This document shows, piece after piece, positions 2,613-22,538 of a DNA stretch of 64,000 bases. Where the stretch lies: assembly GCA_016934735.1 (NCBI GenBank), contig JAFGSG010000063.1, forward strand, positions 33,361 to 97,360. The letters are read 5' to 3'. The DNA is from Spirochaetota bacterium. Its GTDB lineage: Bacteria; Spirochaetota; UBA4802; JAFGDQ01. The notes under the pieces are model-generated. The model did not search any database and was not told the DNA's origin. It worked only from the letters and a program-made list of their open reading frames with translations. The position numbers and the translations under genes were made by a program. Numbering within the stretch: the first letter of the stretch is position 1; every line of letters begins with the position of its first letter.

Positions 2613-3950
2613 ATGAGAAATAAATGTGCTGATGCATACCAGGAAGTTCTCTCCACAGGCCGTCTAAACTCCGACAACTACACCTTGGCAGATTTTTACA
2701 CTATAGACAGCGATGACATTTTTACCAAGACTGTACCGTATTATGAATACGTCAAAGATTATAAAGAAAAAAAATACTATTCATATCAACGGCAGCTTGT
2801 TTCTGCATGCAATCATAGAGTAAAAGTGAAAGATCCATGGACCGGTGAAATAAAAGAAATGATAATGATGGGTTCTAATAACTATCTGGGTCTCATCACT
2901 CATCCAAAAGTTGTGGAAGCAGGCATTAATGCATATCAGCGGTATGGTTCCGGCGCAAGTTCCGCACCTCTTTTAAGCGGCACTTATGACATTACCCGTG
3001 AACTCGAGTTAAAGTTAGCAAAGTTTAAAGGCACTGAGGACGCGCTTGTTTTCTCAACCGGTTATTCCGCAAATGTTGGCACTATAAGCGCTCTGCTTAG
3101 GCCCGGTGATGTGGCCATAATAGACAAACTTGATCATGCAAGCATTATTGACGGGTGCAGGCTTTCCGGAGCAGATTTGCGGACATTCAAACACCAGGAT
3201 ATTGACAGCCTTGAAAAATGTCTTGAAACATGCAAAGACAAATATAAAGGAAAACTAATAATAGTCGACGGTGTTTATAGCATGGATGGTGACATTTGCC
3301 CTCTACCCGAAATAAAAAAAATGTCTGATAAATATGATGCTAGACTTATGGTTGATGATGCTCATGCGACCGGCGTTATAGGACTGTACGGGAAAGGTAC
3401 GGCTGAATATTTCAACATGGAAGATCATGTCGATTTGATCTTAGGCACTTTCAGTAAAACTCTCGGGGCTGTCGGAGGCTTTGTTGCCGCTTCAACAAAA
3501 GTAATAAATTATTTACGTTTTTACAGCCGTTCGTATTTCTTTTCTGCAGCTCTACCACCAAACATTTGTGCAACTGTGAAAGCAGCGATCGAAGTTATTG
3601 AAGAACAACCGGAACTTATTCAACAATTGCATAATAATGTTGAATATCTTCATAGCAAGTTGAAGAATCTTGGATTGCGTGTTACTCCTCCCGGAACCGG
3701 AATAATAACGGTCATTCTTAATGATGAAGTAACACTCCGAAAAATGAGCAAAGTAATCCATGAAAAAGGCCTTTTCATTAATCCTTTACCATTTCCGTCA
3801 GTGCCAAGAGGCGAACCGCGCTTTAAATTAAGTTTAATGGCTACGCATACGCAGGAAGCTTTAGACGAAGCAGCGAATATATTTGAAGAAGCGTGTAATG
3901 AATTTGATATTATAGAGTCCAAAGTTTATGCAATGTTAGCATCTGTTTGA
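2613..3950 (+). CDS. PLP-dependent alpha-oxoamine synthase family acyltransferase (BioF/KBL/serine palmitoyltransferase/CqsA-like), with an N-terminal extension of about 70 aa.
   Basis: GSNNYLGL glycine-rich motif. DDAHATGV. PLP-lysine motif GTFSKTLGAVGG. Length 445 aa. RBS agggga upstream. Confidence 0.85.
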   Translation: MRNKCADAYQEVLSTGRLNSDNYTLADFYTIDSDDIFTKTVPYYEYVKDYKEKKYYSYQRQLVSACNHRVKVKDPWTGEIKEMIMMGSNNYLGLITHPKVVEAGINAYQRYGSGASSAPLLSGTYDITRELELKLAKFKGTEDALVFSTGYSANVGTISALLRPGDVAIIDKLDHASIIDGCRLSGADLRTFKHQDIDSLEKCLETCKDKYKGKLIIVDGVYSMDGDICPLPEIKKMSDKYDARLMVDDAHATGVIGLYGKGTAEYFNMEDHVDLILGTFSKTLGAVGGFVAASTKVINYLRFYSRSYFFSAALPPNICATVKAAIEVIEEQPELIQQLHNNVEYLHSKLKNLGLRVTPPGTGIITVILNDEVTLRKMSKVIHEKGLFINPLPFPSVPRGEPRFKLSLMATHTQEALDEAANIFEEACNEFDIIESKVYAMLASV

Positions 3951-3960
3951 ATAATCCTTT

Positions 3961-5364
3961 ATGTATAAAAAAAACTCCAGTGATTTTTCAGCAGACTTTA
4001 TAATTATTGGTTCAGGTTTAGGTGGTCTTATTACCGCTGCATATCTAGCACGTGCAAAATACCGTGTACTAGTTCTTGAAAAAAATAGTGAAATAGGCGG
4101 TAAATGCGCAACACGTACGATAAATGGCTATAGATATGTCATCGGGGCAAATGGTTTCGGAAGCAGAACGGCTAGTATTTTACAAAATTTTGGAATCAAT
4201 ATAAAATGGATTCCAGCTTCATTTCATATCTATGGAAAAAATGGTTCCCTTAAATTTCCCTTCACATTTTTATCTTTCAAAGAACTTAAAACATTTGGAA
4301 TGAATTATTATTCAATTTTAAAAATGTGTGCTAAACTTGGTAAAACGATACTGTTGCCAAGTTTAGCAGGTAAAACATACCGTAATTATATCGATTATTT
4401 AATCGATGAGCCGGATGCAAAAGAGTTATTGTTCCTTGAAGCATGGTATGTCGGATCACATCCCGATTGGTTGTCTGCCTCTGCTTTAAAATTCTTTATG
4501 GGTACCTTCTATGGATTTAATAAACCTATTTATCCATTAAGTGGAGCGCAGGCTATTCCGATAGCACTTTCAGACTACATCAAAATTCATGGAGGTACTG
4601 TATTAACCAAACAGAATGTTACAAAAATTGGCATCGAAAATGGTACAGCAAAAGTAGTTCAGGTTGGTAGAGATTGGTTCTCTGCAAAATATGCAATAAT
4701 CAGCAATGCAGAAACTGCTCAAACACTTTCCATGCTTAACGATAAGAAGGAAATATTTCCAATAAAAAATAATTATTTATCTCCGAAAAGTGCATTCTCA
4801 TTTGCATTATTACTTTTGTCTTTAGATGCTAATAAAGCCCCTAAAACAATCGCTAATCCAAATCCTTCTCTAGAGACCAACTCTCCATTGCTTATCAGGC
4901 CTATATGTGAAATCATTGGTGAGCTAGAAAAAGGGGAAATCAACAATTCTCCGGTTTGTAATCTCGTGTTATCAGATCTTAAAGCGCAATTGATGAGTGG
5001 CGCCCGACTAACACATCTGCCTGTTCATGTATCAATTCTTTGGCCTCAAAAGCTGCAAAAAAAATTAAATCTTAAATCCCTAACTCAATCTATTTTAATA
5101 GAGATAAATAAACGATATCCAGGCTTTGCTGATGCAGTTACATCTTCCCAATGGTTAACCCCAACAGATTATAAAAAACGCTTTGATTTCTCAAGCAATC
5201 CAGCACCGATCCTTGAAACACCAACTTATACTAAACAATCTTGGAAATTGCCAGTAAATGGTCTTTATAATGTAGGTGCAACTGTTTTACCTTCAGGATC
5301 TCATACAGGAACAGCGATTGAATCAGGTCGCTTATGCGCTAAAGATATTTTAAATTACATCTAA
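3961..5364 (+). CDS. FAD/NAD(P)-binding oxidoreductase, phytoene-desaturase / amine-oxidase superfamily.
   Basis: N-terminal Rossmann dinucleotide motif IIIGSGLGGLITAAYLA...VLVLEKNSEIGGK. About 467 aa, as in the CrtI-like family. Starts 10 nt after the AOS stop, so likely co-transcribed. Confidence 0.7.
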   Translation: MYKKNSSDFSADFIIIGSGLGGLITAAYLARAKYRVLVLEKNSEIGGKCATRTINGYRYVIGANGFGSRTASILQNFGINIKWIPASFHIYGKNGSLKFPFTFLSFKELKTFGMNYYSILKMCAKLGKTILLPSLAGKTYRNYIDYLIDEPDAKELLFLEAWYVGSHPDWLSASALKFFMGTFYGFNKPIYPLSGAQAIPIALSDYIKIHGGTVLTKQNVTKIGIENGTAKVVQVGRDWFSAKYAIISNAETAQTLSMLNDKKEIFPIKNNYLSPKSAFSFALLLLSLDANKAPKTIANPNPSLETNSPLLIRPICEIIGELEKGEINNSPVCNLVLSDLKAQLMSGARLTHLPVHVSILWPQKLQKKLNLKSLTQSILIEINKRYPGFADAVTSSQWLTPTDYKKRFDFSSNPAPILETPTYTKQSWKLPVNGLYNVGATVLPSGSHTGTAIESGRLCAKDILNYI

Positions 5365-5419
5365 GTTAGCTTTTTATTTTTTTTCTCTAGTACCATTTAA
5401 TATCAAAAGGATAAAGGCC

Positions 5420-6589
5420 ATGCATGTAAAAGTATATAATAGCATTACAGAAATAGACGAAGAAAAATGGAATGCATTAATAGGGAGAAATCGCATTATC
5501 TGTTCTTTCAAATTTTTACTAGCTGTTGAAAAATCTCATATAAACGATTGTGAATATTACTATCCCGTTGTTTACGAAAATAATCAAATAATAGCTCATG
5601 CATGCACATATTCAATCACTACAGATTTGGATACACTTGCAAAAGGTATAAGTAAAAAAATAATTCAACTAATTCGCTTCTTCTGGAAAAATTTTTTAAA
5701 AATTAAATTTTTAGAGTGTGGTACACCAATAGCAATTGGAAATACAATATCTTTTGCTGAAAATATCGATAAAAAAAAAGCATTAAACATACTAGTGGAT
5801 TGTGTAGAGAAAATCGCAAATAACAGACGTTTAAATATTATTCTTTTCAGAGATTTTTACGAGGATGAAATTAACTTTTTTAACGATTTAAACAAAAAAA
5901 AATATAAAAAAGTAAATAATCTTCCTAATGCAATTCTTAAAGTAAAATGGAATAGTTTTGATGAATATATAAATGATCTCAGAAGTCATTATAGATATAA
6001 ATTTAATAAATATTTAAATAAAATAAAACAGGAAAAAATAAAAGTTGAATTATGTAATGATTTTATAGATATCGCTGAAAATCTTCAAACCTTATGGCAA
6101 AATGTTTATGATAATGCGAAAGAATACAAGAGAGAAATTCTTACAAAAGATTTTTTCATTTATTTGAATTCATATTTAAAAAATAAAGCAAAAATTATAT
6201 TATTGAAAAAAGATTTAAAAATTATCGGATTTGCATTATTATTAATCGATAATGATATCTTAAGGTTTATGTTTTCAGGAATTGATTATAAGTATAACAT
6301 TGAGCACTCTACATATTTTAATTCTCTTTTGTGTATTGTTAATCAAGCAATTATTGAACAAAAAAAAGAAATAGATATTGGCCTTACAACCTACATTCCG
6401 AAAATGAATGTTGGTGCAAAAATCGTAAATTTATATATGTATATAAAACACACAAACAGACTGCTTAATCCATTAATAACCAACCTCTTTACTATCATGA
6501 ATCCAAAAATAGAAATAAAAACAAATAATGTCTTTAAAGAAAAAATTGAAAATAAATTTGCAAAAAAATATTCGTTAATACATAATTAA
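5420..6589 (+). CDS. FemAB-like GNAT acyltransferase (Acetyltransf_6 / BioF2-associated family).
   Basis: About 390 aa. N-terminal EEKWNALI motif and overall layout typical of the FemAB-like GNAT family that is repeatedly found next to or fused with BioF2-like AOS genes. Extremely AT-rich and K/N/I-rich. Confidence 0.55.
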   Translation: MHVKVYNSITEIDEEKWNALIGRNRIICSFKFLLAVEKSHINDCEYYYPVVYENNQIIAHACTYSITTDLDTLAKGISKKIIQLIRFFWKNFLKIKFLECGTPIAIGNTISFAENIDKKKALNILVDCVEKIANNRRLNIILFRDFYEDEINFFNDLNKKKYKKVNNLPNAILKVKWNSFDEYINDLRSHYRYKFNKYLNKIKQEKIKVELCNDFIDIAENLQTLWQNVYDNAKEYKREILTKDFFIYLNSYLKNKAKIILLKKDLKIIGFALLLIDNDILRFMFSGIDYKYNIEHSTYFNSLLCIVNQAIIEQKKEIDIGLTTYIPKMNVGAKIVNLYMYIKHTNRLLNPLITNLFTIMNPKIEIKTNNVFKEKIENKFAKKYSLIHN

Positions 6590-6641: not shown

Positions 6642-8291
6642 ATGATAAATCCATTAAATACAAAAATGGAGCTCAGTGTTCGAGCTACCCATACTTTTTT
6701 TTTGGCTTTTGAAAAGCAATATGGGAAAAGTGAACTGACCAAACTTATTGATGGAACCGGAATGTCTTTGGATTACTTTGATGACGAAAATAACTGGATA
6801 TCATATGATTATTTCTGCCATGTATTAGATAAAATAGTTGATATTTCAGGTGATCCGAATTATGCATATAAACTTGGATTAACAGCAGCTAAAAGTAATA
6901 GCTGGGGACTAATAAAACTAATAATTACAACTTTTGTTAGCTGTACATATACATATAAAAAAGTAATCTCATTAAGTCCGAGATGGGCAAAAAGCGGGAA
7001 ATTTAACTTTTTAAAAATTAAAAAAAATAAGGCAACACTTGAATATAAATTACGAGAAGATTTAAAACAATATAAAAATAATTGTCTTAGCATACAAGGC
7101 CAATTAGCGTCTATCCCTACTTATTATAATCTCCCCCCTGCAAAAATACGCGAACTCCAATGCGCAGCAGATGGAGCAGATTCGTGCATTTACGAAATCA
7201 GCTGGAAAAATCCACCATATAAAAAAATGGGTTTTTATTTTTTTTTAGCAGGAATTGCATTCTCTATACTACTATATTATTTATACCGACATTCATTCAT
7301 TTCATTATCATTTATTCATGCACTGGTATTTATTATTATCCCGGCAGCAGGTTATTCAATATGGAAGCTGATAAACGATAAAGAAACAATTAAGGATAAT
7401 TATAAAAAAATTGAACAACAAAACGAAGTGCTTACAAAACACCTTGAAGAAATTGAAAAGCTTAACGAGATACTTCAAAACAAAGTTGAAGAAAAAACCA
7501 ATGAACTTCTGGCAAGCAATGACGATTTAAGAATGAAGATAACCGACCTTAAAAACAACGAGGATGAATTAATCAGATCGGGTAAAATGTCAATAATTGG
7601 GAAAATTTCCGAGGAAGTTGCGGATAAATTAAAAAAGCCTCTGAATAAAGTGCATAAAATACTGGCAGATGTAACAGGTAAAACTCACGAAGACACCATA
7701 AAGAGCAGTCTTACAGGCGCGCAAAGAGCAGCAGACAGATGTGAAAAAACGCTCAACGAACTTCTATCCTTTTCACATATCGGGAATAATTTATCTGTTC
7801 ATGGAGTAGATGTAAATAAATTAATCGAAGAGTGCGCGAATAAAGCAAATGAACAAATATCCAATCCGGATATCAAAATATGTACAAAATTTACAAATGA
7901 TCTGCCTATAATTTCGGCAGATTATAAGCAGATAGAACAAATTATAATGATTTTTATAACAAACGCTAATGACGCAATTAACGAGGCCTTAAAAAATAGC
8001 AATAAGAAAGAAGGTGAAATCTCAATACAGACATCCTTTCAGGACAATAATATCCTCATTGAAATTAAAGACACTGGATCCGGAATCCCCAACGAGGTAA
8101 TAAAAAAAATATTTGATCCATTTTTCTCCACAAAAAGTACGAGCAAAAGAAAAGGCATGGGCCTTACATTAAGCTATAACTATATTAAACAGCTTGGCGG
8201 AAAAATTGACGTAAAAAGCGATGAAGGCAAAGGTACTACATTTACAATTGCTTTTCCGGTAACGGAAAATAATAATACTTTTATTAAGTAA
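6642..8291 (+). CDS. Membrane-anchored histidine-kinase-like protein with a cytoplasmic XylR-A/V4R-like sensor domain. The phosphoacceptor His is replaced by Asp; the ATP-binding domain is intact.
   Basis: N-terminal ~195 aa ends ...NNCLSIQGQLASIPTYYNLPPAKIRELQCAADGADSCIYEISW, a V4R-like Cys motif. Two TM helices (FYFFLAGIAFSILLYYLY / ALVFIIIPAAGYSIW). DHp helix GKISEEVADKLKKPL aligns gaplessly with the paralog's AGVAHEINNPM. N-box NANDAI, G1 DTGSGI and G2 GMGLTL are present. Confidence 0.75.
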   Translation: MINPLNTKMELSVRATHTFFLAFEKQYGKSELTKLIDGTGMSLDYFDDENNWISYDYFCHVLDKIVDISGDPNYAYKLGLTAAKSNSWGLIKLIITTFVSCTYTYKKVISLSPRWAKSGKFNFLKIKKNKATLEYKLREDLKQYKNNCLSIQGQLASIPTYYNLPPAKIRELQCAADGADSCIYEISWKNPPYKKMGFYFFLAGIAFSILLYYLYRHSFISLSFIHALVFIIIPAAGYSIWKLINDKETIKDNYKKIEQQNEVLTKHLEEIEKLNEILQNKVEEKTNELLASNDDLRMKITDLKNNEDELIRSGKMSIIGKISEEVADKLKKPLNKVHKILADVTGKTHEDTIKSSLTGAQRAADRCEKTLNELLSFSHIGNNLSVHGVDVNKLIEECANKANEQISNPDIKICTKFTNDLPIISADYKQIEQIIMIFITNANDAINEALKNSNKKEGEISIQTSFQDNNILIEIKDTGSGIPNEVIKKIFDPFFSTKSTSKRKGMGLTLSYNYIKQLGGKIDVKSDEGKGTTFTIAFPVTENNNTFIK

Positions 8292-8322
8292 TTTTTTAAA
8301 ATTACGAAAAAATAGCAATTAT

Positions 8323-9945
8323 ATGAAACGCGAAGACCTGGACCCAAAACTCATAAAACTAGAACATAGTGTTAAAGCGATCGGCCATTTACTCCAATCA
8401 TTTGAAGCGGACTATGGCAAGGATGAGCTTGTTAAATTTATGGATAGAACAGGAATTCCGCTTGAATATTTTAACAACAAAAACAACTGGGTAAGCTTCG
8501 ACTATTTTCTGACTTTACTTGACCAACTTGTTGAACACACCGGAAATCCGCAAATAGCTTTTAAATACGGTTTAAACACTGTAAAATACGGCGATACATG
8601 GGGAATACTGAAAACACTTTTTACTATAATACCCTCACCCATGTATATGTATAAATCCGCAATTAGATTTAATGGCAGATATAGTAAAGTAACCATAAGT
8701 AAAATAAATGAACTAAATAAAAATAAAGTTATAATTGAATTTGGTTTTAAAGAAGGTTATAAAACTAATGTGAATAATTGTCTCAATATACAAGGAAGCC
8801 TTGTATCTCTACCAACATATTTTAACATGCCTGTTGCTGAAGTAAAAGAACTGCAATGTGCTGCCAAGGGCGCAGACACATGTGTTTACGAAGTAACATG
8901 GCAGGAAATAACCAATAAAAAAAATAAATTTTTTTCTTTACTTACGGGCATCTTTGCCGTATACTTATTGTACGCTGTAATCAATTGGTTCGGTTTAGAT
9001 ATAAACACATTAATTAAAATAATATTGTGTGCGATTCCAATCGCGTTCTACAGCGTGGGCCGCGCCATTGATTACAAAATGACAATACGCGACAACATGG
9101 AGGTAGCACAGGACCAGAACAAGGCGACAATTGAATCTCTGGAAAATGTTCAGGAAATAAACGAAGAACTTCAGAGAAACATCGACCGGAGAACCCAGGA
9201 ACTAAAAATTACCAACAGAAAACTTGCAGAAACAGTGATCCTCATACAAAAAAGCGAGCAAGACCTGCTGACAGCGGAAAGAATGGCAGGCATAGGACAG
9301 CTTGCCGCAGGCGTGGCCCACGAGATCAATAATCCAATGGGTGCTGTAAGAAACTACCTGCAGGATGTTCTGGAAGATATCCCTGATAATGATCCGCGGA
9401 GACAGGCTCTTATAGAAGCGGAGAAAGCCACAAAAGAAAGTAAGATATTAATAAACGACCTCCTGTCATTTTCAAGGACTTATGAGAATTTATATATTGT
9501 CGATATTGACGTTAACGAAGTACTGGAAAGGATCTGCGAGAGAATCAAGTTTTCAAATTTAAATATTAAAATTAATAAATACTTGACTCCCGGCATTCCT
9601 TTGATAAAATCAGACCAGATGCAGGTGAATCAGTCATTAAACAACATAATTCTAAATGCCTGCAACGCTATAAAAGAGAATGGATTGATCGCGGTAAGGA
9701 CTTCGTCCGGTCCGGAAGGCATCCATATCGAAGTAACAGATAACGGAGAAATAATTCCGCCGGATCTACTGGATAAATTTTTTGACCTGTCCGGTATGGA
9801 ATTTAAATGGGTGGGAAGAAAAGACCTTGAAATCGCGATGAGCTACAGCATAATTAAACGCTTTAACGGAGATATAACAGTAAGCAGTTCAGTTGAGAAC
9901 GGCACAATATTTAAAGTTCTAATTCCTTATATAATTAAAGTATAA
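8323..9945 (+). CDS. Paralogous membrane-anchored sensor histidine kinase with an XylR-A/V4R-like sensor domain. H-box intact; ATP-binding G1/G2 motifs degenerate.
   Basis: Sensor domain ...NNCLNIQGSLVSLPTYFNMPVAEVKELQCAAKGADTCVYEVTW. TM hairpin. H-box ERMAGIGQLAAGVAHEINNPMGAV. G1 reads DNGEII (second Gly lost). The G2 region reads GRKDLEIAMSYS instead of GxGLGL. Confidence 0.75.
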   Translation: MKREDLDPKLIKLEHSVKAIGHLLQSFEADYGKDELVKFMDRTGIPLEYFNNKNNWVSFDYFLTLLDQLVEHTGNPQIAFKYGLNTVKYGDTWGILKTLFTIIPSPMYMYKSAIRFNGRYSKVTISKINELNKNKVIIEFGFKEGYKTNVNNCLNIQGSLVSLPTYFNMPVAEVKELQCAAKGADTCVYEVTWQEITNKKNKFFSLLTGIFAVYLLYAVINWFGLDINTLIKIILCAIPIAFYSVGRAIDYKMTIRDNMEVAQDQNKATIESLENVQEINEELQRNIDRRTQELKITNRKLAETVILIQKSEQDLLTAERMAGIGQLAAGVAHEINNPMGAVRNYLQDVLEDIPDNDPRRQALIEAEKATKESKILINDLLSFSRTYENLYIVDIDVNEVLERICERIKFSNLNIKINKYLTPGIPLIKSDQMQVNQSLNNIILNACNAIKENGLIAVRTSSGPEGIHIEVTDNGEIIPPDLLDKFFDLSGMEFKWVGRKDLEIAMSYSIIKRFNGDITVSSSVENGTIFKVLIPYIIKV

Positions 9946-10016
9946 CCTTTTAACAATTTGTCGGATGTGGTTTTGTTCAATGCAAAATTGAACTATACTC
10001 AATAAGTTCATAAAAT

Positions 10017-10042
10017 AGCCCGGCCTTAGAGGGCTTTATGTT
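10017..10042 (+). terminator. Possible rho-independent terminator after the tandem kinase genes. Hand-derived coordinates, +/- 2 nt.
   Basis: agccc-ggccttaga-gggct stem-loop followed by ttatgtt. Confidence 0.35.
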
Positions 10043-10131
10043 CTTACTCAGTATATATTGCTATATATAATAGTTTATGCAAATGCCGGCAGAACACAAT
10101 TTAGTCAATCTTTGACACCCGGCCTGGTTGG

Positions 10132-10163
10132 TATTCCTTTTCACAGAAGCCGGAAAAGGAATA
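10132..10163 (+). promoter_or_regulatory. Perfect 10-bp inverted repeat (tattcctttt ... aaaaggaata) with a 12-nt spacer, about 50 bp upstream of the REC-PAS-HK-REC gene. Candidate operator or leader hairpin.
   Basis: Read directly: tattcctttt cacagaagccgg aaaaggaata. A TTGACA hexamer lies about 20 bp upstream. Confidence 0.3.
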
Positions 10164-10213
10164 TATCTTAGCGGATATATTTTACTTTAATGATTATTTC
10201 GAGGAATTAGAAA

Positions 10214-12127
10214 TTGAGTATTAAAAAAGAAGAACGAGTTAACCTCCTTTTAATCGAAGATGATATCGATTTTAAAACTTCATTAGCAAACCGACTTGCT
10301 AAAAATGACTGCAATGTCACAGCTGTCGGGTCTGCAGAAGAAGCGCTGGAATTAGTCGGTTCCGGAAACTACGAGGTAATAGTTTCCGATATTAAACTGG
10401 AAGGAATGGACGGGCTGGAATTTCTTTCCAGGATTAAAAAAATCAATGAAGATTTGCCCGTCATTCTCGTAACCGGGTATGCCAATCTTGATACGGCAAG
10501 ACAGGCGGTTGCCCTGAATGCCTATAACTATCTTCTTAAACCTCTGGAAAATATTTCCGATATACTGATACCAATTAAAAACGCCGTTCAAAGTTATAAG
10601 CTTCAAATCGAAAATAAAACACTAAAAGAACATTACGAAAATATTGTAACAAGTGTTCCTGACGGGATTTTAACAATAAACAGCTCTACTTTAAAAATTG
10701 AATCCGTAAATAAAACATTTTTGAAAATATTCAATACATCTGAAAAAGAAGTGCTGAATAAAAAAATTGATAAAATATTTGATAAAGAAGTTACTGATAA
10801 AATAAAATATCTCATGGAATCGCTCGGCCTGGACGGGAACGCTCTGTCTTTCGAGTGGCTCACATTAAACCAGAACGAAAAAATATTCTGGGCGAATATC
10901 ACGCTAAAAAGAGCTGTAATCGGCAAGAAGGAAAGCATCCTCATGGTTGTCTCGGATATCACCAATTTAAAGCGGGCGGAAGAAGATAAAAAAGAACTGG
11001 AAGTACAGTTCATCCAGATGCAGAAACAGGAAACTATCGGAAGCCTTACGGGAGGGATAGCACACGAATTCAACAATATACTTTCAATAATTTTGGGGCA
11101 TGCTCAGCTTTCTTTAAGTGAAAATGCCAGTCCTGAACTGAAAAAATCACTGACAGAAATTGAAAAAGCAACCATGCGCGGAAGCAGTTTAGTCGAGAAT
11201 ATGACTACATTCGCAAGCCCAAACCAGCCGGCTTTAATACCGCAGGATATCCGGGATAGCATTGACAGCGTTCTGCAGATGCAGGACAGGCAACTGCGTT
11301 TTCAGAATATTGAAATCGAAAAAAATTATTCCAATGAACTCGTTGCGCTATTCGATTCCGGTCAGATGGAACAGGCTATCTTAAATTTATTAATAAATTC
11401 CATGCATGCCATAAAACCGAAAGGGAAAGGCAAAATCTCAATAACCGTCCGCGATCTGGAAAATTCTATTGAGATAATCTTTCAGGATACCGGGATAGGC
11501 ATGAGTCAGGAAACGCAGGAAAAAATATTTGATCCTTTCTTTACAACCAAAGGCGCATACTCAAAAGACGAACATGATATATCCGGAACCGGATTGGGAC
11601 TCTCAGTAACAAATGCGATAATTAATCAGCATCATGGCTCAATTTCGGTTGGGAGCGAAGTGAATATCGGAACTACATTCAGAATAGGCATCCCTGCGGC
11701 AAAAACAGCCCTTGAAGAAAAAATAATAACGGCTGAATTATCACAAAACATCAACATGGAAAAGATCAGAAACCTCCGTATACTGCTTGTAGAAGATGAA
11801 GACGAAATAGTTAAATTGCTGAAACTAGTTTTTAAAAAGGCCGGATTAAAAAATTTTTTAATTGAACAAAACTCCAAAAAGGCAGTGAAAGCCTTTATTG
11901 ATTTTAACCCGGATATTGTTTTTATTGATCTGATAATGCCGGAAATGAACGGGAAACAGGTTTTTGAAGAAATAAAAAAAATAAATGAAAAAGTGCCTCT
12001 TGTGCTTATGAGCGGAAAAATTAATATAAAAAAGGAAGAACTTTCACAAATGGGTTCTTATGATTATATAAAAAAACCGTTCAATATAAACGATTTATAT
12101 AAAATCCTTGATAGAGTATCTTTATAA
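10214..12127 (+). CDS. Hybrid two-component protein REC-PAS-HisKA-HATPase_c-REC.
   Basis: N-terminal receiver LLLIEDD...VIVSDIKLEGMDG. H-box GSLTGGIAHEFNNILSIILGH. DTGIGM/GTGLGLSV. C-terminal receiver RILLVEDEDE...FIDLIMPEMNG, very similar to the C-terminus of the first kinase. Confidence 0.85.
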   Translation: MSIKKEERVNLLLIEDDIDFKTSLANRLAKNDCNVTAVGSAEEALELVGSGNYEVIVSDIKLEGMDGLEFLSRIKKINEDLPVILVTGYANLDTARQAVALNAYNYLLKPLENISDILIPIKNAVQSYKLQIENKTLKEHYENIVTSVPDGILTINSSTLKIESVNKTFLKIFNTSEKEVLNKKIDKIFDKEVTDKIKYLMESLGLDGNALSFEWLTLNQNEKIFWANITLKRAVIGKKESILMVVSDITNLKRAEEDKKELEVQFIQMQKQETIGSLTGGIAHEFNNILSIILGHAQLSLSENASPELKKSLTEIEKATMRGSSLVENMTTFASPNQPALIPQDIRDSIDSVLQMQDRQLRFQNIEIEKNYSNELVALFDSGQMEQAILNLLINSMHAIKPKGKGKISITVRDLENSIEIIFQDTGIGMSQETQEKIFDPFFTTKGAYSKDEHDISGTGLGLSVTNAIINQHHGSISVGSEVNIGTTFRIGIPAAKTALEEKIITAELSQNINMEKIRNLRILLVEDEDEIVKLLKLVFKKAGLKNFLIEQNSKKAVKAFIDFNPDIVFIDLIMPEMNGKQVFEEIKKINEKVPLVLMSGKINIKKEELSQMGSYDYIKKPFNINDLYKILDRVSL

Positions 12128-13537
12128 AGAATTCAGATATCCCTCTATTCCCTGAGCAGCCTGCCTTCCCTGCGAGATTGCCCTTACAACAAGCGAAGCT
12201 CCGGATGCAGAATCTCCTGCTGCGAAAATTCCGTCGATATTCGTCATATAATCCGCGTTAACTTTAATATTGCCCCGTGAATCAGTGCTAATCCCCATAT
12301 TCTTAATCAGTTCATGCTCAGCATGAAGAAATCCCATAGCGAGAAAAACAATGTCGGCTTTTATAGCAATATCAGTTCCGGGCAACTCTCTCATTCTATA
12401 GGAATATTTTTCATCGTAATACCATTCAACCTGCACTGCTGTGATGCTGCTAACTCTCCCGTTATCCCCATCGAATCTTTTTGTCAATATATTCCAATAT
12501 CTTTCACAGCCTTCTTCGTGAGAGCTTGATGTCTTTAAAAGTTTAGGCCAAAGCGGCCACGGTTCATCATCTGTTCTGTGCTCCGGCGGCTTAGGCAAAA
12601 GCTCTATCTGTGTTATATTTGCAGCGCCCTGCCTGTTTGCGGAACCGACACAGTCTGAACCCGTATCGCCGCCGCCTATAACCACAACGTTTTTATTATA
12701 TGCCCTTATGAGTTCCTGTTCGGGAATTACATCGCCTCTCACGATCTTATTCTGCTGGGTAAGATATTCCATAGCAAAATAAATACCGGTCAAGTCCCTG
12801 CCGGGTATCTCAAGGTTCCTCGGTTCACGCGCGCCGATTGTCAGACAAATTGCATCAAACTCGTCTTTTAATTTTAAAATATCACTGCCTATCCTCACAC
12901 CGGTTTTAACAATAAGACCTTCCTGTTTTAATATATTCACCCGCCTGTCAATTATGTTTTTGTTGAGTTTAAAATCCGGAATACCGAACCTTAAATAACC
13001 GCCGACACTGTCTTCAGCTTCATAAAGTACAACCGTATGCCCTGCTTTGTTTAAAATATCCGCACACGCAAGGCCTGCCGGGCCGCTGCCTATTACAGCT
13101 ATCCTTTTACCTGTCCTATTCTTCGGCGGCCTTGGCACAACATAACCCTCTTTGAACGCTTTTTCGATTACAAAAAGCTCATTATTTCTTATGGTTACCG
13201 CCTCGTCATTAATTGAAAGCACACATGATGCTTCGCACAAAGCAGGGCAAACGCGGCCGGTAAACTCAGGAAAATTATTTGTCTCCTGTAAAATTCCATA
13301 TGCTGCCTTATAATCTCCCCTGTAGATCATATCCTGCCACTCAGGCATCATATTCGAGACCGGACAGGCCCAATGACAGAAAGGGACTCCGCAATCCATG
13401 CACCTGGAAGCCTGAAGCTTTCTGGCCTGCTCCGGAAGTTCCTGTTCAACTTCATGATAATCCCTGACACGCTCCTCTATAGGCCTGTAGCCGCCTTCTT
13501 CCCGTTTTATGTTTAAAAAACCTGACGGATTACCCAT
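12122..13537 (-). CDS. gltD: Glutamate synthase (NADPH) small subunit.
   Basis: GRVCPALCEASCVL Fe-S motif. FAD/NAD(P) Rossmann motifs IAVIGSGPAGLACA and VVVIGGGDTGSDC. Its start overlaps the gltB stop. Confidence 0.85.
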   Translation of the reverse strand: MGNPSGFLNIKREEGGYRPIEERVRDYHEVEQELPEQARKLQASRCMDCGVPFCHWACPVSNMMPEWQDMIYRGDYKAAYGILQETNNFPEFTGRVCPALCEASCVLSINDEAVTIRNNELFVIEKAFKEGYVVPRPPKNRTGKRIAVIGSGPAGLACADILNKAGHTVVLYEAEDSVGGYLRFGIPDFKLNKNIIDRRVNILKQEGLIVKTGVRIGSDILKLKDEFDAICLTIGAREPRNLEIPGRDLTGIYFAMEYLTQQNKIVRGDVIPEQELIRAYNKNVVVIGGGDTGSDCVGSANRQGAANITQIELLPKPPEHRTDDEPWPLWPKLLKTSSSHEEGCERYWNILTKRFDGDNGRVSSITAVQVEWYYDEKYSYRMRELPGTDIAIKADIVFLAMGFLHAEHELIKNMGISTDSRGNIKVNADYMTNIDGIFAAGDSASGASLVVRAISQGRQAAQGIEGYLNSL

Positions 13538-16500
13538 TAGAATATTTCCTCCAATTGCTCTTCTTCCCTGATCTTCTTGAGCTTCTCATCGATCATAGAA
13601 ATTTTTATTTCATTCATAGCGCGTTTGTATTCAAACGAAATTACTTTGATAAACTTAGGAAGATAATCATACCAGTTCTTGAGTATATCTTTCGCGTTGC
13701 TGCTGTCCGTGTATTTAATATGTTTCTGAAGCAATTCCAGTATAAAATCCTGATCTTCATAATCCCTTACCTGTGACAATTCAACCATACCCTTGTTGCA
13801 GAAATAATCAAAATTGCCGTCCCTGTCCAATACATATGCAATCCCACCGCTCATGCCTGCTGCGAAGTTGCGGCCCACTCTGCCAAGCACTATTATGCGT
13901 CCGCCGGTCATGTATTCTGCGCAATGATCGCCGGTACCCTCAACAACCGCTGTTGCGCCGCTGTTTCGCACGCAGAAGCGTTCGCCCGCTATGCCGCGGA
14001 TAAAGGCTTCTCCCCCAGTAGCGCCGTATAGTACGGTGTTGCCGACTATTATGTTCTCCTCAGCTTTAAAGACTGAATCCCGCGAAGGCGTAACTATAAG
14101 CCTGCCGCCGGAAAGCCCCTTGCCGAGATAATCGTTGGAATCGCCTTCAAGGCGGAATGTGATTCCCTTTGCAAGAAAAGCGCCGAAGCTCTGCCCGGCA
14201 CTTCCGCGGAACACGCATTCAATGCTGTTGTCCGGAAGTCCGGCGTCACCGTATTTCCGGGAGATCTCATATGAAAGCATGGCGCCTGTAGCGCGGTCCG
14301 TATTGCTTACCTGCATTTCAATGTTTATCCGGCTTCTGTTTTCATCGCTCATTGCCGGCTTTGACTTTTCAATTAGCACTTTATCGAGAACATTTTCAAT
14401 CTTGTGTATCTGACATTCAATGCAGTAACCAGTATTCCTTCCGGCTTCCGGGGATCTGTAAAGTATCCCGGAAAGATCGACTTTCCCTGCTTTCCAGTGA
14501 TCAATATTTCTTGATATTAAGAGATCGGTTCTGCCGATGAGCTCATCAAATCTCCGTACTCCTATCATGGCCATAATCTCGCGTACTTCCCGCGTTAAAA
14601 ATGTAAAATAATTGATAAGATGCTCCGGCCTGCCTTTAAATCTTTTTCTTAGCTCAGGGTCCTGAGTGGCTATACCGACAGGGCATGTATTTATATGGCA
14701 TTTTCTCATCATCACGCATCCGAGGGAAATGAGCGTTCCTGTTCCGAAACCGAATTCCTCTGCACCCAGAAGCGCTGCAATGACAATGTCCCTGCCTGTT
14801 TTTAACTGACCGTCCGTCTGTAGGCGCACTCGTCCCCTGAGATTATTCCGGACTAGGGTCTGATGCGTCTCTGACAGGCCGAGCTCCCATGGCAGTCCCG
14901 CATGCTTTATTGAGCTTAAGGGGCTTGCGCCTGTGCCTCCGTCGTATCCGCTTATTAGAATATTGTCAGCATGCGCCTTGGCAACCCCGGCTGCGATAGT
15001 GCCTACTCCGGCTTCCGAAACGAGCTTAACGCTTATCCGCGCATTCGGATTGGCGTTCTTAAGATCGAATATCAGCTCCGCAAGATCCTCTATCGAATAA
15101 ATGTCATGATGAGGAGGAGGCGAAATTAGAGTAACACCCTGTGTGGAATAGCGCGTCTTTGCTATTATTCTGTCTATCTTGTGTCCTGGAAGCTGGCCGC
15201 CCTCGCCCGGCTTCGCTCCCTGAGCGATCTTAATCTGGATCTCATCCGCATTTGCAAGGTAATTGCTGGTCACTCCGAATCTGCCCGAAGCTACCTGCTT
15301 TATCGCGCTTCTGGCAAATGAGCAATCCTGACGCATAAGGAATCTACCCGGATCCTCTCCGCCTTCCCCGGAATTGCTTCTTCCGCAGATAGCATTCATG
15401 GCAACACCGATAGTTTCGTGCGCCTCCCTGCTTATCGACCCGTAAGACATTGCGCCTGTTGTCAGGCGTTTCAGAATACCGGGCAACGGTTCAACTTCCT
15501 CGACAGGAATCGGATTGTTCTTAAAATCAAGCAGACCTCTGATGACATGAGGCCTACGGTTGCTTTCATCCACAAGCCCGGAAAACTCTTTATACCTAGC
15601 GTAATCCGACGTGCGCACTGCCCACTGCAGAAGGCGTATTGTATCCGGGGTCCACGCATGCCTCTCGCCGCTCTTTCTGTACTGATACACACCCTGTGAT
15701 TCAAGAGAGGATATTTTTTGATAAGCTGATTCATGTTTCATCAGAGATTCTTTTGCAATTTCCTTTATTCCTATACCACCAATCCTTGAATCTGTTCCAG
15801 AAAAATATTTATCTATAACTTCTTTTCCAAGTCCCACTGCTTCGAATATCTGCGCACCCCGGTAGCTCCTAAGAGTGGAGGTACCCATTTTAGACAGCAC
15901 CTTCAGGAGACCCTTGTTTACAGCCTTGATATAATTATCAACCGCATGCTCACTGTCAATATCAGAAGATAATTTTCCACGTTTATATAAATCCTCTACT
16001 ACAGCGATCGCGCCATAAGGATTCACAGCGTCTGCGCCGTAACCGAAAAGAAGGGCAAAATGCATCACTTCCCTGGGTTCCGCCGACTCTATTACTAGCC
16101 CGGCCATTGTTCTCTTCCTGGATCTTATAAGATGATGATGCACACCGGCGCATGCAAGAAGAGACGGAACGGGCGCTTTATCGCAGCCGGTTTCCCTATC
16201 AGATATTATTATGATGGTATTTCCGCTATCAATACTTTCCTCTGCTTCAGCACACATCCTCTCGATAGCAGCTTCAAGACCGGATACGCCGTCACTGACA
16301 TTGAATGTTGCATCAATTACCGCTGGTCTGAAATTGGAATTGTTTATGTTTTTCAGCTTCTGAATATCCGGCTGAGAAAAAACCGGACTTGTAAATTTAA
16401 TTACCCTGCAAAGCTCCGGATCCCCGGATAGAATGTTTGTATATGAACCTATGAAACTGGTTAATGTCATGACAAGTTCTTCGCGTATTGAGTCAATGGG

Positions 16501-18072
16501 AGGATTTGTAACCTGCGCGAACATCTGCTTAAAATAATTGAACAAGGGCTGGGGCTTATCGGAAAAAACTGCAAGCGGAGTATCTGTTCCCATTGACCCT
16601 GTCGGTTCCTGGGCAGTCTGAGACATATGCAGAATAATGGTCTCGATATCTTCCCTCGTATACGCATTAACAATTTGCAATTCGAGCAGCTTAGTGCCGG
16701 AAATCTCAGCCGGAGGCTCATCTTTAGACATAATTTCCGAAAGAATGATTCTGTTCTCCTCAACCCATTTTTTATAGGGCTGCTGATGTGAAATTATGTC
16801 CTTGATCTCTTTATCGGGTATTATCCTTCCCTCCTCTGTATCGACGAGAAGCAGTTTGCCTGGCATAAGGCGTCCTTTGTAAATGATATCTTCCGGCGCA
16901 AATGTCTGCACCCCGACTTCCGAGCCCATTACGATCAGGTCATCTTTTACGATATAATATCTTGACGGCCTGAGACCGTTGCGGTCAAGAGTACCGCCTA
17001 CATACCTTCCGTCGCTGAATACAATAGAAGCCGGCCCGTCCCACGGCTCCATGAACGACGCGTGATATTCATAAAAATATTTTAGATCGTCAGGAATGGG
17101 GTTTTTATCATTCCAAGATTCCGGGATAAGCATCATTATAGCATGTGGAAGCGACCGGCCGGTCGCAGCAAGCATTTCAAGAGCATTATCAAGCGAAGCT
17201 GAATCGCTTTTACCAGGCTCAATTACAGGAAGAATTTTTTTTATACCGCTGCCAAATGGATCAGATTCAAAAAATGATTCCCTCGCCTGCATCCAGAACC
17301 TATTTCCTTTTATAGTATTTATTTCGCCGTTATGTGCAAGAAGCCTGAAAGGCTGAGCAAGGTCCCATGACGGGAATGTGTTCGTGCTGAATCTCGAATG
17401 AACAAGTGCGATCGAACTCGAAATCCTGTCAGATCTTAGATCCCGATAATATCTTTTCAGCTGTGAAGGCATCAGCATGCCTTTATACACAATAGTCTTT
17501 GAAGACAGGGAAGGGATATGGAACAGAGCCTTTTGTTTTAAATCAGAATGCCTGATTTTATTTTCAATTGACTTACGTATTATATATAATTTTCTCTCAA
17601 AAACATCCTGCTGAAGAGACCTCCCCGCAACGAACACCTGTTTGATAACGGGTTCAGAGCGTTTTGCAATTTCTCCAATAACGGAATTATCGACTTCTAT
17701 GTCTCTCCATAGTATTATTTTCTGACCTTCTTCTTCAGCTGCCTTATTGAATTCAGCGATACATTCCTCAGCCTCCCCGGAATCCCGAGGCAGGAATACA
17801 AGGCCTGTGCCGTACGATCCTGATCCGGGAATATTCTTTATTTCCTGTTTGTAAAATTCATGAGGGATCTGTAAAAGAATACCGGCGCCGTCGCCTGTCT
17901 TATTGTCAGCACCTTCCGCGCCCCTGTGCTCCATCCTCTCAAGCACTTCAAGCCCGCGCCTGATAATATTATTCGATTTTTCTCCTTTTATATGCGCTAC
18001 AAATCCGATTCCGCAGGAATCGTGCTCGTAGTCATTACTGTAAAGTCCTCTTGTAGTATTTCCCGGCATCAT
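13537..18072 (-). CDS. gltB: Glutamate synthase large subunit (Ntn amidotransferase, FMN/Fe-S and GXGXG domains).
   Basis: N-terminus ...[15 protein letters not shown] with the Ntn Cys. 1511 aa. Canonical large-subunit motifs throughout. Confidence 0.9.
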
Positions 18073-20951: not shown

Positions 20952-21002
20952 GAAAAAACCTCGCTATATAACAGGTATGCGATTCACAAATGTTGTTTAT
21001 AT

Positions 21003-22538
21003 TCACAGTTCCAATATCCCGTTAAGTTTCCGGTTATGTATATGATCAATATGCGCAATAAGGTCCGTGCGCCCCGTGAGCTCAGTCACGCTTTTCATGT
21101 TAAGCCGCTTCAGTATGCGCATGAGCTGCCGCCGCCATGAAATATACATGTTTATGATGCGCTGAGTGCCCCATTCCAGGTTCATCAGATTAGTAAGTTC
21201 TTCGTCAGTCGTCGCTATGCCGCGCGCGCATCCCCTGCCGGATTCGCAGTGATGACAGCGTATGCACTCAAGCGCCACAAGATCGGCAGTGCCTATACAT
21301 ATTCCATCGGCTCCCATTGCTATTGCCTTTGCCATATCATATGCAGACCGTATGCCTCCGCTCGCAATGACTGTTATCTTATTGCGTATTCCTTCGGATG
21401 TAAGGAATTTGTGCACTTTGGGAATCGCGTATTCAATCGGCATCGCGATGTTCTTCTTGGCAATTTCCGGAGCCGCGCCTGTTCCCCCGTAGCTTCCGTC
21501 AAGATGGATGATATGCGCCCCTGCGTAATACGCGCCGACCGCCACCATGTCGACATCTGTCGGAGTGGACACTTTGATCGATACAAGCGTCTTCGGATTT
21601 ACTTCTTTTATCCAGTCCACGTGTTTCTTGTGATCTTCAACTGAATACACGCTGTGAAACGGAAAAGGAGAAAAAAGAGCAGTCCCTGGCACTGCCTGCC
21701 GCATGGCTGCTACACGCGGAGTCACCTTGTCACCCAGCAGGTGTCCGCCGAGGCCCGGTTTTGCTCCCTGTGCGTATTTGAATTCCACAATACGGACTCG
21801 TTTTATAGTTTCTTCCTTAACACCAAAAAGGCCGGTAGCTACCTGCGTGATTATATGATCGCTATATGGTATAAGTTCTTCGGGGAATCCTCCCTCGCCC
21901 GTGCAGCAGAACGTGCCCAGGTTTGTCGCAGCCCTAACACGAGAGAGCATTGTTACTATGCTGACAGAACCGAAAGACATCCCGCCCAGATATACGGGGA
22001 TCGGGATTGTTACTTCAGGCCTTGAGTCCTGTGAGTGGTTCAGATCTATAGCAGTTGAAATCCCGTCCAGGGATTCATTTTTAATATCATCCTCTTCCTT
22101 TTTGCTTTTTTCAGGGAAAAGTATTCCAATTTTATCGAATCCGCCGCCCGAATTGCCTGTTTTATAATTCAGATTAGCCGGCAATTCCCCTGAGGCAGCC
22201 ATATTCCATGTGGACGCAAGCAGTTCCGCGGGCCAGCGGCGGTCGCCAAGTACTTCAAACGAAGGATTTAATCTGAGTGATATTGCCTTTTCCGGGCATT
22301 TATTAACGCAATAATAATCATTTTTTGAGCAATCATATCCGATGCACAGATGATCGGATAAAGCTTTCGGTCTTTTCATTCCGGATTTAAATACAGCGTA
22401 AGGACAGACTTCAATGCATTTCCCGCAATTAGTGCAGGCCTTGTTTATAGTAATGAGATATTTTCCAAGAGCGTTGCGGAACCGGCTTGGCATTTCCTTT
22501 ACTTCAGGGAAAATAAAAGTTACTTTATTACTTGCCAT
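21003..22538 (-). CDS. Archaeal-type glutamate synthase domain-2 protein: N-terminal 2x[4Fe-4S] ferredoxin plus FMN-binding GltS TIM barrel.
   Basis: CTNCGKCIEVCP and CVNKCP cluster motifs. FMN-domain motifs AQGAKPGLGGHLLGDKVT, HLDGSYGGTGAAP and VIASGGIRSAYDMAKAIAMGADG. Confidence 0.8.
   Translation of the reverse strand: MASNKVTFIFPEVKEMPSRFRNALGKYLITINKACTNCGKCIEVCPYAVFKSGMKRPKALSDHLCIGYDCSKNDYYCVNKCPEKAISLRLNPSFEVLGDRRWPAELLASTWNMAASGELPANLNYKTGNSGGGFDKIGILFPEKSKKEEDDIKNESLDGISTAIDLNHSQDSRPEVTIPIPVYLGGMSFGSVSIVTMLSRVRAATNLGTFCCTGEGGFPEELIPYSDHIITQVATGLFGVKEETIKRVRIVEFKYAQGAKPGLGGHLLGDKVTPRVAAMRQAVPGTALFSPFPFHSVYSVEDHKKHVDWIKEVNPKTLVSIKVSTPTDVDMVAVGAYYAGAHIIHLDGSYGGTGAAPEIAKKNIAMPIEYAIPKVHKFLTSEGIRNKITVIASGGIRSAYDMAKAIAMGADGICIGTADLVALECIRCHHCESGRGCARGIATTDEELTNLMNLEWGTQRIINMYISWRRQLMRILKRLNMKSVTELTGRTDLIAHIDHIHNRKLNGILEL

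Follow-up and report, generated by a model that had tools for sequence, protein, structure and literature searches.

Histidine kinases are regarded as homodimers, and their paralogues are thought to evolve avoidance of cross-pairing. Structures suggest that a kinase-active dimer has a single working active site at a time, a feature that symmetric proteins make difficult to examine. The H139N and G313A mutants of NtrB have reportedly been used in trans-autophosphorylation mixtures.

The standard laboratory test of phosphorylation in trans is to mix a His mutant with an ATP-site mutant (PMC5956149). In Rhodobacter sphaeroides, CheA3 and CheA4 present a natural split, in which one protein is without the phosphorylatable domain and the other is without the catalytic domain; neither autophosphorylates singly, and phosphorylation occurs only in the mixture (PMC3591291). 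The His-bearing partner in split kinases is also a phosphatase, and models of such systems give ultrasensitivity or bistability (PMC3591291). In the FasBCAX system of group A Streptococcus, FasB and FasC are encoded by adjacent sensor-kinase-like genes, and two-hybrid experiments detect their hetero-association and no homo-association (PMC12675982, 2025). FasC is called a pseudokinase, with a dispensable kinase domain and a key His, H246, and FasB is the presumed supplier of catalysis in what, together with the response regulator FasA, is termed a "three-component" system (PMC12675982).

The locus described here lies in a 64,000-nucleotide stretch of DNA from an uncultured Spirochaetota bacterium, which was analysed as a whole and is called the window below. 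Two adjacent genes, A and B, encode sensor kinase paralogues between a conserved cassette and a hybrid kinase gene. Features are listed by their positions in the window.

2613-6589, + strand: conserved upstream cassette (Pfam, NCBIfam), made up of genes for an alpha-oxoamine synthase (2613-3950), an FAD oxidoreductase (3961-5364) and a FemAB_like acyltransferase-type protein (5420-6589)
6642-8291, + strand: gene A (ORF, 549 aa), a His-less, membrane-anchored sensor kinase paralogue with an intact CA domain
6642-7211, + strand: sensor domain of A (residues 1-190), cytoplasmic and of predicted H-NOX/V4R fold, with invariant Cys148, Cys174 and Cys182
7227-7352, + strand: membrane hairpin of A, two hydrophobic helices in residues 196-237 (Kyte-Doolittle scan)
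7605-7643, + strand: degenerate H-box of A, ISEEVADKLKKPL, with Asp328 at the phospho-His position
7950-8171, + strand: ATP-binding motifs of A, all intact and conserved in 12/12 A-clade proteins, namely the N box IFITNANDAI (7950-7979), G1 DTGSGI (8070-8087), F box FDPFFSTK (8112-8135) and G2 GMGLTL (8154-8171)
8292-8322: A-B spacer of 31 bp, without a terminator-like site
8323-9945, + strand: gene B (ORF, 540 aa), whose DHp is a canonical phospho-acceptor and whose CA domain is remodelled and probably non-catalytic
8323-8907, + strand: sensor domain of B (residues 1-195), of predicted H-NOX/V4R fold as in A, with the Cys triad kept
8929-9057, + strand: membrane hairpin of B (residues 203-245)
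9301-9339, + strand: canonical H-box of B, LAAGVAHEINNPM, with His333 encoded by CAC at 9319-9321
9643-9843, + strand: CA motifs of B, with the N box kept (9643-9672), G1 degenerate (DNGEII, 9739-9756), and F and G2 lost (FDLSGMEF at 9781-9804 and GRKDLEIAMS at 9814-9843)
10214-12127, + strand: REC-PAS-HisKA-HATPase-REC hybrid protein (637 residues, Pfam), the likely phospho-acceptor of B

Sequence features of the tandem kinases

A and B are paralogous along their full length (35% identity across 540 residues, E = 2e-113) and are probably co-transcribed across the 31-bp spacer. They are identical in sequence to P0001 and P0121, respectively. Among solved structures, both kinase cores are most closely related to ZraS, which has been described as trans-acting (PMC12314577). 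The membrane anchor of A is a hairpin of two helices, and its sensor and kinase portions should therefore both be cytoplasmic.

An earlier reading, made from the letters and their open reading frames and referred to here as the sequence-only reading, had claimed that the DHp helices of the two proteins align without gaps and that A has Asp in place of the phospho-His. Both statements are borne out. The helices IGKISEEVADKLKKPL and IGQLAAGVAHEINNPM align gaplessly, and Asp328 of A (GAT, 7623-7625) aligns with His333 of B as well as with the phospho-His of E. coli ZraS, LAAGVAHEIRNPL. Where the canonical H-box has AHEINNP, A has ADKLKKP, so that 5/7 residues are changed; because the whole box is rewritten, its state is not explicable by a single-base error. 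Pfam finds HATPase_c in A and does not find HisKA.

The ATP-binding motifs are arranged the other way round. A keeps the N box, G1 and G2, as had been noticed earlier, and the F box is present too. B keeps the His and, again as first described, departs from the canonical G1 and G2 boxes, and its F box is gone as well: FDLSGMEF at the F-box site and GRKDLEIAMS at the G2 site align to FTPYFTTK and GTGLGLAVVH of ZraS. The proposal that each protein retains what the other has lost, with the catalytic motifs in A and the acceptor His in B, thus holds at the level of motifs, and by this measure neither protein is a self-sufficient canonical HisKA kinase, A failing on the acceptor His and B on a complete CA domain. 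Pfam nevertheless detects both HisKA (4.7e-09) and HATPase_c (8.3e-12) in B. Both N-box Asn residues are kept in B, and the G1 Asp is kept in 11/12 B proteins, suggesting that nucleotide binding by B may persist; B may also have weak autokinase activity. The HExxN phosphatase-type motif is retained in B.

The fold of the sensor domains was assigned by structure prediction combined with a fold search, and the predicted structure corresponds to the H-NOX fold. A sequence search of the PDB with the sensor domain, both as a single sequence and as a profile, gave nothing significant. The sensors of A and B are on average 46% identical (7 genomes). Columns that are invariant or nearly so include W52, S54, N147, C148, P159, P165, A167, C174, C182 and W188, among others, and no invariant His is among the conserved sensor columns. 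The proximal His and the Y-x-S-x-R motif that mark heme binding were not found in the sensor domain, the latter having been sought by eye only. Relative to H-NOX, V4R and AraC-N (VirS/CdpR-type) domains, the sensors of A and B are without a conserved heme-ligating His, and they are set apart by three invariant Cys residues. Their ligand may be a lipid-like product; that the upstream cassette makes a sphingolipid-like compound is a speculative possibility.

Conservation of the pair and its gene neighbourhood

The sequence-only reading had made its proposal depend on orthologous pairs in other genomes, and in relatives both the His loss in A and the G-box losses in B are completely conserved. 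A phospho-His occurs in 0/12 A-clade proteins, the position being occupied by Asn in 10, Asp in 1 and Ser in 1. With Asn in 10/12 and Ser in 1/12, the alternative suggestion that the Asp of A is a phosphomimetic is disfavoured as a property of the family. The same 12/12 proteins all keep N, G1, F and G2, and their H-box has the consensus a-N-K-L-K-K-P. The hydrophobic DHp pattern is retained in A, and a search of the A-clade DHp for an alternative conserved His found none.

In the B clade, the H-box AAGVAHEINNPMGAVR is kept in 12/12 full-length proteins and a glycine-rich G2 is present in 0/12. The remodelled ATP lid is common to all 12 and carries the conserved signatures DNG[ED]IIP and GRK[DE]LxLA. 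In every B orthologue, charged or bulky residues stand in place of the three G2 glycines and of the second glycine of G1.

Bootstrap support is 100% for each of the two clades, and the related kinases outside both are canonical throughout (21/21, with the His and a glycine-rich G2 present). When 1.84 billion cluster representatives were scanned, one further clearly degenerate state came up, P0266, the only one among the matches listed with motif columns aligned. Related loci were also sought with the B-clade alignment, which added two more, both partial and from Leptospirales, and searching for homologues with the sensor profile yielded just 3 fragments. All of the proteins sampled belong to one lineage, so their conservation speaks for two ancestral events and subsequent maintenance, and not for repeated independent origins.

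Orthologues of A and of B were compared in 7 matched genomes. Identity in DHp helix 1 is 0.43 among A orthologues versus 0.82 among B orthologues, and H-box identity is 0.51 versus 0.96. Identity of the CA domain is 0.56 for A and 0.57 for B, indicating that the altered CA domain of B is not visibly decaying. Within A, G1 identity is 0.78 and F-G2 identity is 0.80. Position 295 shows a conserved clade-specific charge reversal, being acidic in A and basic in B, and positions 366-368 are R-C-K in the outgroup, R-C-E in A and E-S-K in B. The charge reversals at these sites are candidate determinants of heterospecific pairing.

In 6 intact loci the gene for A immediately precedes that for B, and in L031, a frameshift-ridden contig, an N-terminal A fragment is upstream of B. 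In the one genome with the two genes apart, GCA_043803405.1, they are on separate contigs, with both types still present. None of the contigs read holds an A-type locus that is demonstrably without B, several of them ending too early to tell. L005, which has two His-less genes and no B, was considered as a counter-example and rejected, B being present on another contig of the same assembly. That genome has a tandem pair of A-type genes with B elsewhere, which indicates that neither co-transcription nor strict 1:1 pairing holds everywhere.

In the window and in the P0004, P0005, P0006 and L003 loci, the gene immediately after B encodes a REC-PAS-HisKA-HATPase-REC protein. B retains its REC-PAS-kinase-REC neighbour where it is separated from A (L006), and hybrid kinases that flank the A-B locus number two. 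On the other side, wherever a locus that was read reaches far enough upstream, the kinase or kinases are preceded by alpha-oxoamine synthase and FemAB_like genes, and this includes L008 and L009, relatives with a single kinase. The middle gene of the cassette varies (oxidoreductase or radical-SAM) and is missing from two loci. In P0244, a FemAB_like-type region is fused to the same kinase type.

The L007 pair has a different combination of features. The His is kept in both copies, and G1 of copy 1 is NNGEE, with Asp changed to Asn. With both His residues present and the G1 of copy 1 damaged, there is no obvious way for this pair to work with one catalytic and one acceptor protein. It is probably early-branching, with moderate support for its placement (38-77% and 70-88%).

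Possible modes of action of A and B

We propose that A and B together make up one sensor histidine kinase that is functionally split into two halves, and give this reading a probability of roughly 55%. A tandem duplication of a canonical H-NOX/V4R-sensor kinase would have been followed by complementary loss. The only competent ATP-binding catalytic domain would be that of A, and B would supply the only phosphorylatable His, a docking surface for response regulators and the phosphatase motif. The simplest assembly, in line with the obligate heterodimer suggested in the sequence-only reading, would be an A:B heterodimer formed through the DHp helices. In it the CA domain of A would phosphorylate His333 of B in trans, and from phosphorylated B the phosphoryl group would move on to a receiver domain in the neighbouring REC-PAS-kinase-REC protein. 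A hetero-oligomer of homodimers would be an alternative assembly. The physical association, the trans-phosphorylation and the downstream target are what we infer from motifs and gene order. Both sensor domains are intact and they differ, so two inputs could be integrated by an A-B complex. Free B could work mainly as a phosphatase, an activity that in split kinases can make responses switch-like.

Sequencing error at the His codon, which the sequence-only reading had named as a hazard, and paralogues turning into pseudogenes deserve next to no weight. The GAT of the window is one base from the His codon CAT, but five of the seven H-box residues of A are changed and not the His position alone, and the His is absent from 12/12 A orthologues in independent assemblies. 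Both ORFs are also intact and full-length in many genomes and conserved along their whole length. Error and decay are refuted by orthologue conservation and by the identity comparison; taken with the adjacency of A and B in six loci, the conserved losses leave a division of labour as the best reading.

A different account, which we regard as unlikely, makes A a pseudo-histidine kinase with a regulatory role, of the DivL, RetS or SkaH type. A would bind ATP and a ligand and would signal only through protein contacts, on B or on the flanking hybrid kinases, and B would be phosphorylated by another kinase or would act mainly as a phosphatase or phosphotransferase. Such a role would suit the absence of an acceptor residue from every A orthologue, the presence of two flanking hybrid kinases and the phosphatase-type HExxN motif kept by B, and RetS-GacS heteromers behave in this way. 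The L007 pair also fits, as neither copy looks fully catalytic and the pair is still retained beside a hybrid kinase. However, the N, G1, F and G2 motifs of A are conserved as a complete set. An active site for phosphoryl transfer would require that set, and less would seem to suffice for nucleotide sensing alone. The exact reciprocity of A and B and their six-locus adjacency would also go unexplained. These two points weigh likewise against the more improbable idea that A and B are independent, with B self-sufficient through an unconventional ATP lid and A serving a function that does not involve a phospho-His: why the His is lost in A only where B has lost its lid, and why the genes continue to be adjacent, would remain without explanation. 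B does keep the Asn residues of the N box and the Asp of G1, its HATPase_c fold is significant in Pfam, and F boxes are not universal among histidine kinases. Yet every B orthologue has lost the three G2 glycines and the second glycine of G1, and work on EnvZ and NtrB is said to have found autokinase activity lost in G2 mutants.

A bolder version of the split-kinase reading, which we offer as a tentative possibility, is that A and B form a hard-wired asymmetric kinase. In this version an obligate A:B heterodimer would have one active site and one acceptor His, and with an H-NOX/V4R-type sensor on each subunit its output would need both subunits and possibly two ligands, as in an AND gate. Free B would be a phosphatase, making the response switch-like; the CA domain of B would have acquired a new role, for example in nucleotide-dependent docking or regulation; and the L007 pair would be an evolutionary intermediate.

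Comparison with described split and degenerate kinases

The A-B arrangement is rare, and its concept has a few known precedents. The sequence-only reading was right to call a split between catalysis and acceptor unusual, although FasB/FasC and CheA3/CheA4 show that it has precedents. These precedents, and a function inferred from sequence, limit the importance of the pair. If the split-kinase reading is true, a natural pair of which one member only catalyses and the other only accepts would be a clean system for studying trans-phosphorylation and dimer asymmetry. It would also inform the partitioning of kinase and phosphatase activities and the origin, by complementary loss, of obligate heteromers from duplicated homomers. 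The pair further draws attention to a small uncharacterised module, in which a cytoplasmic sensor kinase of H-NOX/V4R fold accompanies an alpha-oxoamine synthase/FemAB-like cassette.

RetS-GacS and DivL resemble A and B in that kinase-like proteins without a normal acceptor or catalysis act by contact with another kinase. DivL carries Tyr at the position of the His. Unlike A and B, RetS and GacS are not reciprocal halves, GacS being a complete kinase that is inhibited by RetS.

FasB and FasC are similar to A and B in being encoded by adjacent genes, with one partner bearing the acceptor His and the other presumed catalytic, but they differ in kinase family, sensor type and phylum. FasB may also retain a phosphorylatable His of its own (H284 has been discussed), unlike A. 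The FasB/FasC split is known from deletion genetics, whereas that of A and B is a reciprocal, clade-wide loss of motifs recognised from sequence alone.

CheA3 and CheA4 belong to a different kinase class (P1-P5 architecture) and are missing whole domains, whereas A and B each have the full domain set and have lost active-site motifs alone. The HExxN motif found in B is a criterion for bifunctional split kinases (PMC3591291). With His replaced by Asn, Asp or Ser in A and with G-box defects in B, the pair corresponds, in natural form, to the mixtures of mutants by which trans-autophosphorylation is demonstrated (PMC5956149). However, the NtrB and EnvZ mixtures combine engineered point mutants of one homodimeric kinase, whereas A and B are diverged paralogues that are 35% identical and have their own sensors.

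Motif states of the paired kinases and their relatives

Two adjoining sensor-kinase paralogues, A and B, are homologous end to end (35% identity over 540 residues, E = 2e-113):

6642-8291, + strand: A, ORF of 549 aa
8323-9945, + strand: B, ORF of 540 aa

No terminator-like site was found in the 31-bp spacer between them. Both proteins consist of an N-terminal soluble domain (~190 residues), two hydrophobic helices (residues 196-237 in A, 203-245 in B), a long helical linker, the DHp domain that normally bears the phospho-His, and the ATP-binding CA domain. They are 100% matches to two database proteins on a 119.7-kb contig of a 'Spirochaetes bacterium' MAG.

The motif losses claimed in the sequence-only reading are borne out by alignment. 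Asp328 of A (GAT, 7623-7625) lies opposite His333 of B (CAC, 9319-9321) and, in a second alignment, opposite the phospho-acceptor His of E. coli ZraS. A retains all of its ATP boxes: the N box (IFITNANDAI), G1 (DTGSGI) and G2 (GMGLTL) named in that reading, and also the F box (FDPFFSTK). B keeps its His and an N box (NIILNACNAI), its G1 reads DNGEII, and FDLSGMEF and GRKDLEIAMS occupy the places of ZraS FTPYFTTK and GTGLGLAVVH. Pfam detects a strong HATPase_c domain in A (1.7e-23) and no HisKA domain; B matches HisKA (4.7e-09) and, more weakly than A, HATPase_c (8.3e-12). Because the H-box of A is altered throughout (AHEINNP to ADKLKKP), a single-base error at the His codon is ruled out from the window alone.

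With A and B as queries, a small family was recovered and sorted into three groups (alignment A2). The A clade (12 proteins, 47-65% identity to A) has no His at the phosphoacceptor position, which is Asn in 10 members, Asp in one and Ser in one, and N, G1, F and G2 are retained in all 12. All 12 full-length proteins of the B clade (50-72% identity to B) retain AAGVAHEINNPMGAVR nearly letter-perfect and share DNG[ED]II and GRK[DE]LxLA. The degeneracies are thus conserved in orthologues, and both sequencing error and pseudogene decay are excluded. Every motif is canonical in the remaining 21 members, from Omnitrophota, Elusimicrobiota, Desantisbacteria and others. Each clade has 100% bootstrap support, and each forms one 50% cluster in a profile search of 1.84 billion cluster representatives. 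The only other clearly degenerate protein among listed hits with aligned motif columns is P0266 (570 aa), a more distant family member in which Arg replaces the phospho-His (LAAGMARELNNPL) and N, G1, F and G2 are all gone; it is a kinase-like protein that is dead throughout.

Identity was compared region by region over seven genomes carrying both genes.

Regional identity (within the A orthologues; within the B orthologues)
DHp helix 1: 0.43; 0.82
H-box: 0.51; 0.96
CA domain: 0.56; 0.57
Sensor domain: 0.61; 0.56

Constraint on A has been relaxed or redirected precisely on the helix that normally bears the His. The motif-poor CA domain of B is about as conserved as that of A, and so gives no sign of decay. 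A search of the A-clade DHp domain for an alternative conserved His found none; this domain retains its hydrophobic helical pattern, and its surface has turned Lys- and Glu-rich. Position 295 is conserved as acidic in the A clade and basic in the B clade. At positions 366-368 in DHp helix 2, the outgroup has R-C-K, the ancestral state, A has R-C-E and B has E-S-K. Conserved opposite-charge substitutions fall at A residues 295, 329 and 366-368 (about 7524-7745 in A and 9220-9440 in B). These reciprocal changes are candidates for heterospecific A/B pairing, and no more than that.

Linkage and origin of the pair

Six intact loci have A directly 5' of B: the window, the P0004, P0005 and P0006 contigs, L001 and L003. 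In another locus, L031, an N-terminal A fragment (P0236) precedes B on a contig full of frameshifts; almost all genes 5' of B, A included, are split into short ORFs there (L031:1-8000, ENA contig), which looks like assembly error and not biology. Locus L005 (L005:10001-13384, GCA_043803405.1) carries a tandem duplication of the A-type gene (P0011, P0012) and lacks B. It was dropped as a counter-example, since another contig of the same assembly holds a single B-type gene (P0130, L006:10001-11632). The neighbours of this B, a REC-PAS-kinase-REC gene and gltDB, also border B at other loci. Because B kept company with a receiver-containing protein after the pair broke, we propose the window's REC-PAS-kinase-REC protein (10214-12127) as the acceptor that would take the phosphoryl group from B.

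In loci L008 and L009, a single canonical family kinase occupies the same slot after the same upstream genes; the ancestral state was therefore one complete kinase. Locus L007 (GCA_034190085.1) has a tandem pair (10001-11641 and 11948-13570) branching at the base of the A and B clades. In bootstrap trees, copy 2 falls with B (70% full-length, 88% for DHp plus CA) and copy 1 with A (38% and 77%), and just 2-6% of replicates recover an independent duplication. N, G1 and G2 are already gone from copy 2, whose H-box is perfect. In copy 1 the His and the N, F and G2 boxes survive, and G1 reads NNGEE (Asp to Asn), which makes the activity of this copy itself doubtful. These motif states suggest that catalysis was lost from copy 2 before the His was lost from copy 1.

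Genomic context and sensor domain

The neighbouring genes include:

2613-6589: upstream cassette, also found at L001, L003, L005, L007, L008 and L009, single-canonical-kinase loci included
12122-18072, - strand: gltD and gltB
18306-23925, - strand: further large ORFs

An alpha-oxoamine synthase gene and a FemAB_like gene lie 5' of the kinase or kinases in every locus read with enough upstream sequence. The best NCBIfam matches of the synthase, all below cut-off, are serine palmitoyltransferase, Kbl and BioF. Genes for an FAD oxidoreductase, a B12 radical-SAM enzyme or both usually lie between the two; both are absent from L005 and the P0005 contig, and L007 and L008 have an extra Toluene_X/FadL-type outer-membrane protein. 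The layout recalls that of bacterial Spt-bCerS-CerR ceramide clusters. The FemAB_like gene (5420-6589) has 23.4% GC (GC3 18%), compared with 32-40% in its neighbours and 45-46% in gltBD. Counterparts of the 18306-23925 ORFs in related contigs carry GXGXG and Glu_synthase domains, so that two adjoining gene sets of the glutamate-synthase type may be present in the window.

The representative search also yielded P0244 (912 aa), in which a FemAB_like-type N-terminal region (~370 residues) is fused to the sensor-plus-kinase architecture. The fusion was spotted by eye, through resemblance to the window's FemAB_like protein; as a Rosetta stone, it hints at cooperation between the acyltransferase-like enzyme and the kinase family. 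One may reasonably guess that the signal sensed at the membrane is a hydrophobic product. The N-terminal sensor domain is modelled confidently by AlphaFold (pLDDT 91.8) and has three invariant Cys residues; its alignment contains no conserved heme-ligating His. Pfam V4R matches are below threshold, yet recur in 21 of 23 members.

A candidate split kinase and its alternatives

The best-supported reading, which we infer from sequence, is that A and B form a split kinase, as the sequence-only reading had suggested. A would provide ATP binding and catalysis, and B the acceptor His and a phosphotransfer/phosphatase surface. Among solved structures, both kinase cores are closest to ZraS, which is described as trans-autophosphorylating, and dimers in the kinase-active state have an asymmetric structure in which one CA domain is engaged (PMC12314577). 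The standard test of trans-phosphorylation mixes two mutants, one altered at the His and the other at the ATP site (PMC5956149), and the A/B pair would be the natural equivalent of that mixture. B also retains HExxN, the motif taken as a sign that a split kinase is bifunctional (PMC3591291). This kinship, asymmetry and parallel, together with HExxN, the DHp pattern of A and the charge changes, make a split kinase plausible.

The L007 pair does not fit a simple model of catalytic A and acceptor B. It leaves room, as do the N-box Asn and G1 Asp retained by B, for a regulatory role of A as a pseudokinase, with one of the flanking hybrid kinases feeding B, which would act as phosphotransferase or phosphatase. 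B, with an unusual ATP lid, could also need no partner, but neither the reciprocity of the losses nor the linkage of A and B would then be explained.

The pair is of clear interest to specialists in two-component systems, its functions being those we infer. Its closest precedent is FasB/FasC, whose kinase-like genes lie side by side and whose products associate with each other and not with themselves; the kinase domain is dispensable on the His-bearing partner, and catalysis is ascribed to the other (PMC12675982). The closest mechanistic parallel is CheA3/CheA4 and the split-kinase concept, in which modelling predicts switch-like output if the free acceptor subunit is a phosphatase (PMC3591291). 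Compared with these systems, the novelty is one of form: the two paralogues are both full-length and sensor-bearing, their active-site losses are reciprocal and kept clade-wide, and there is a possible intermediate.
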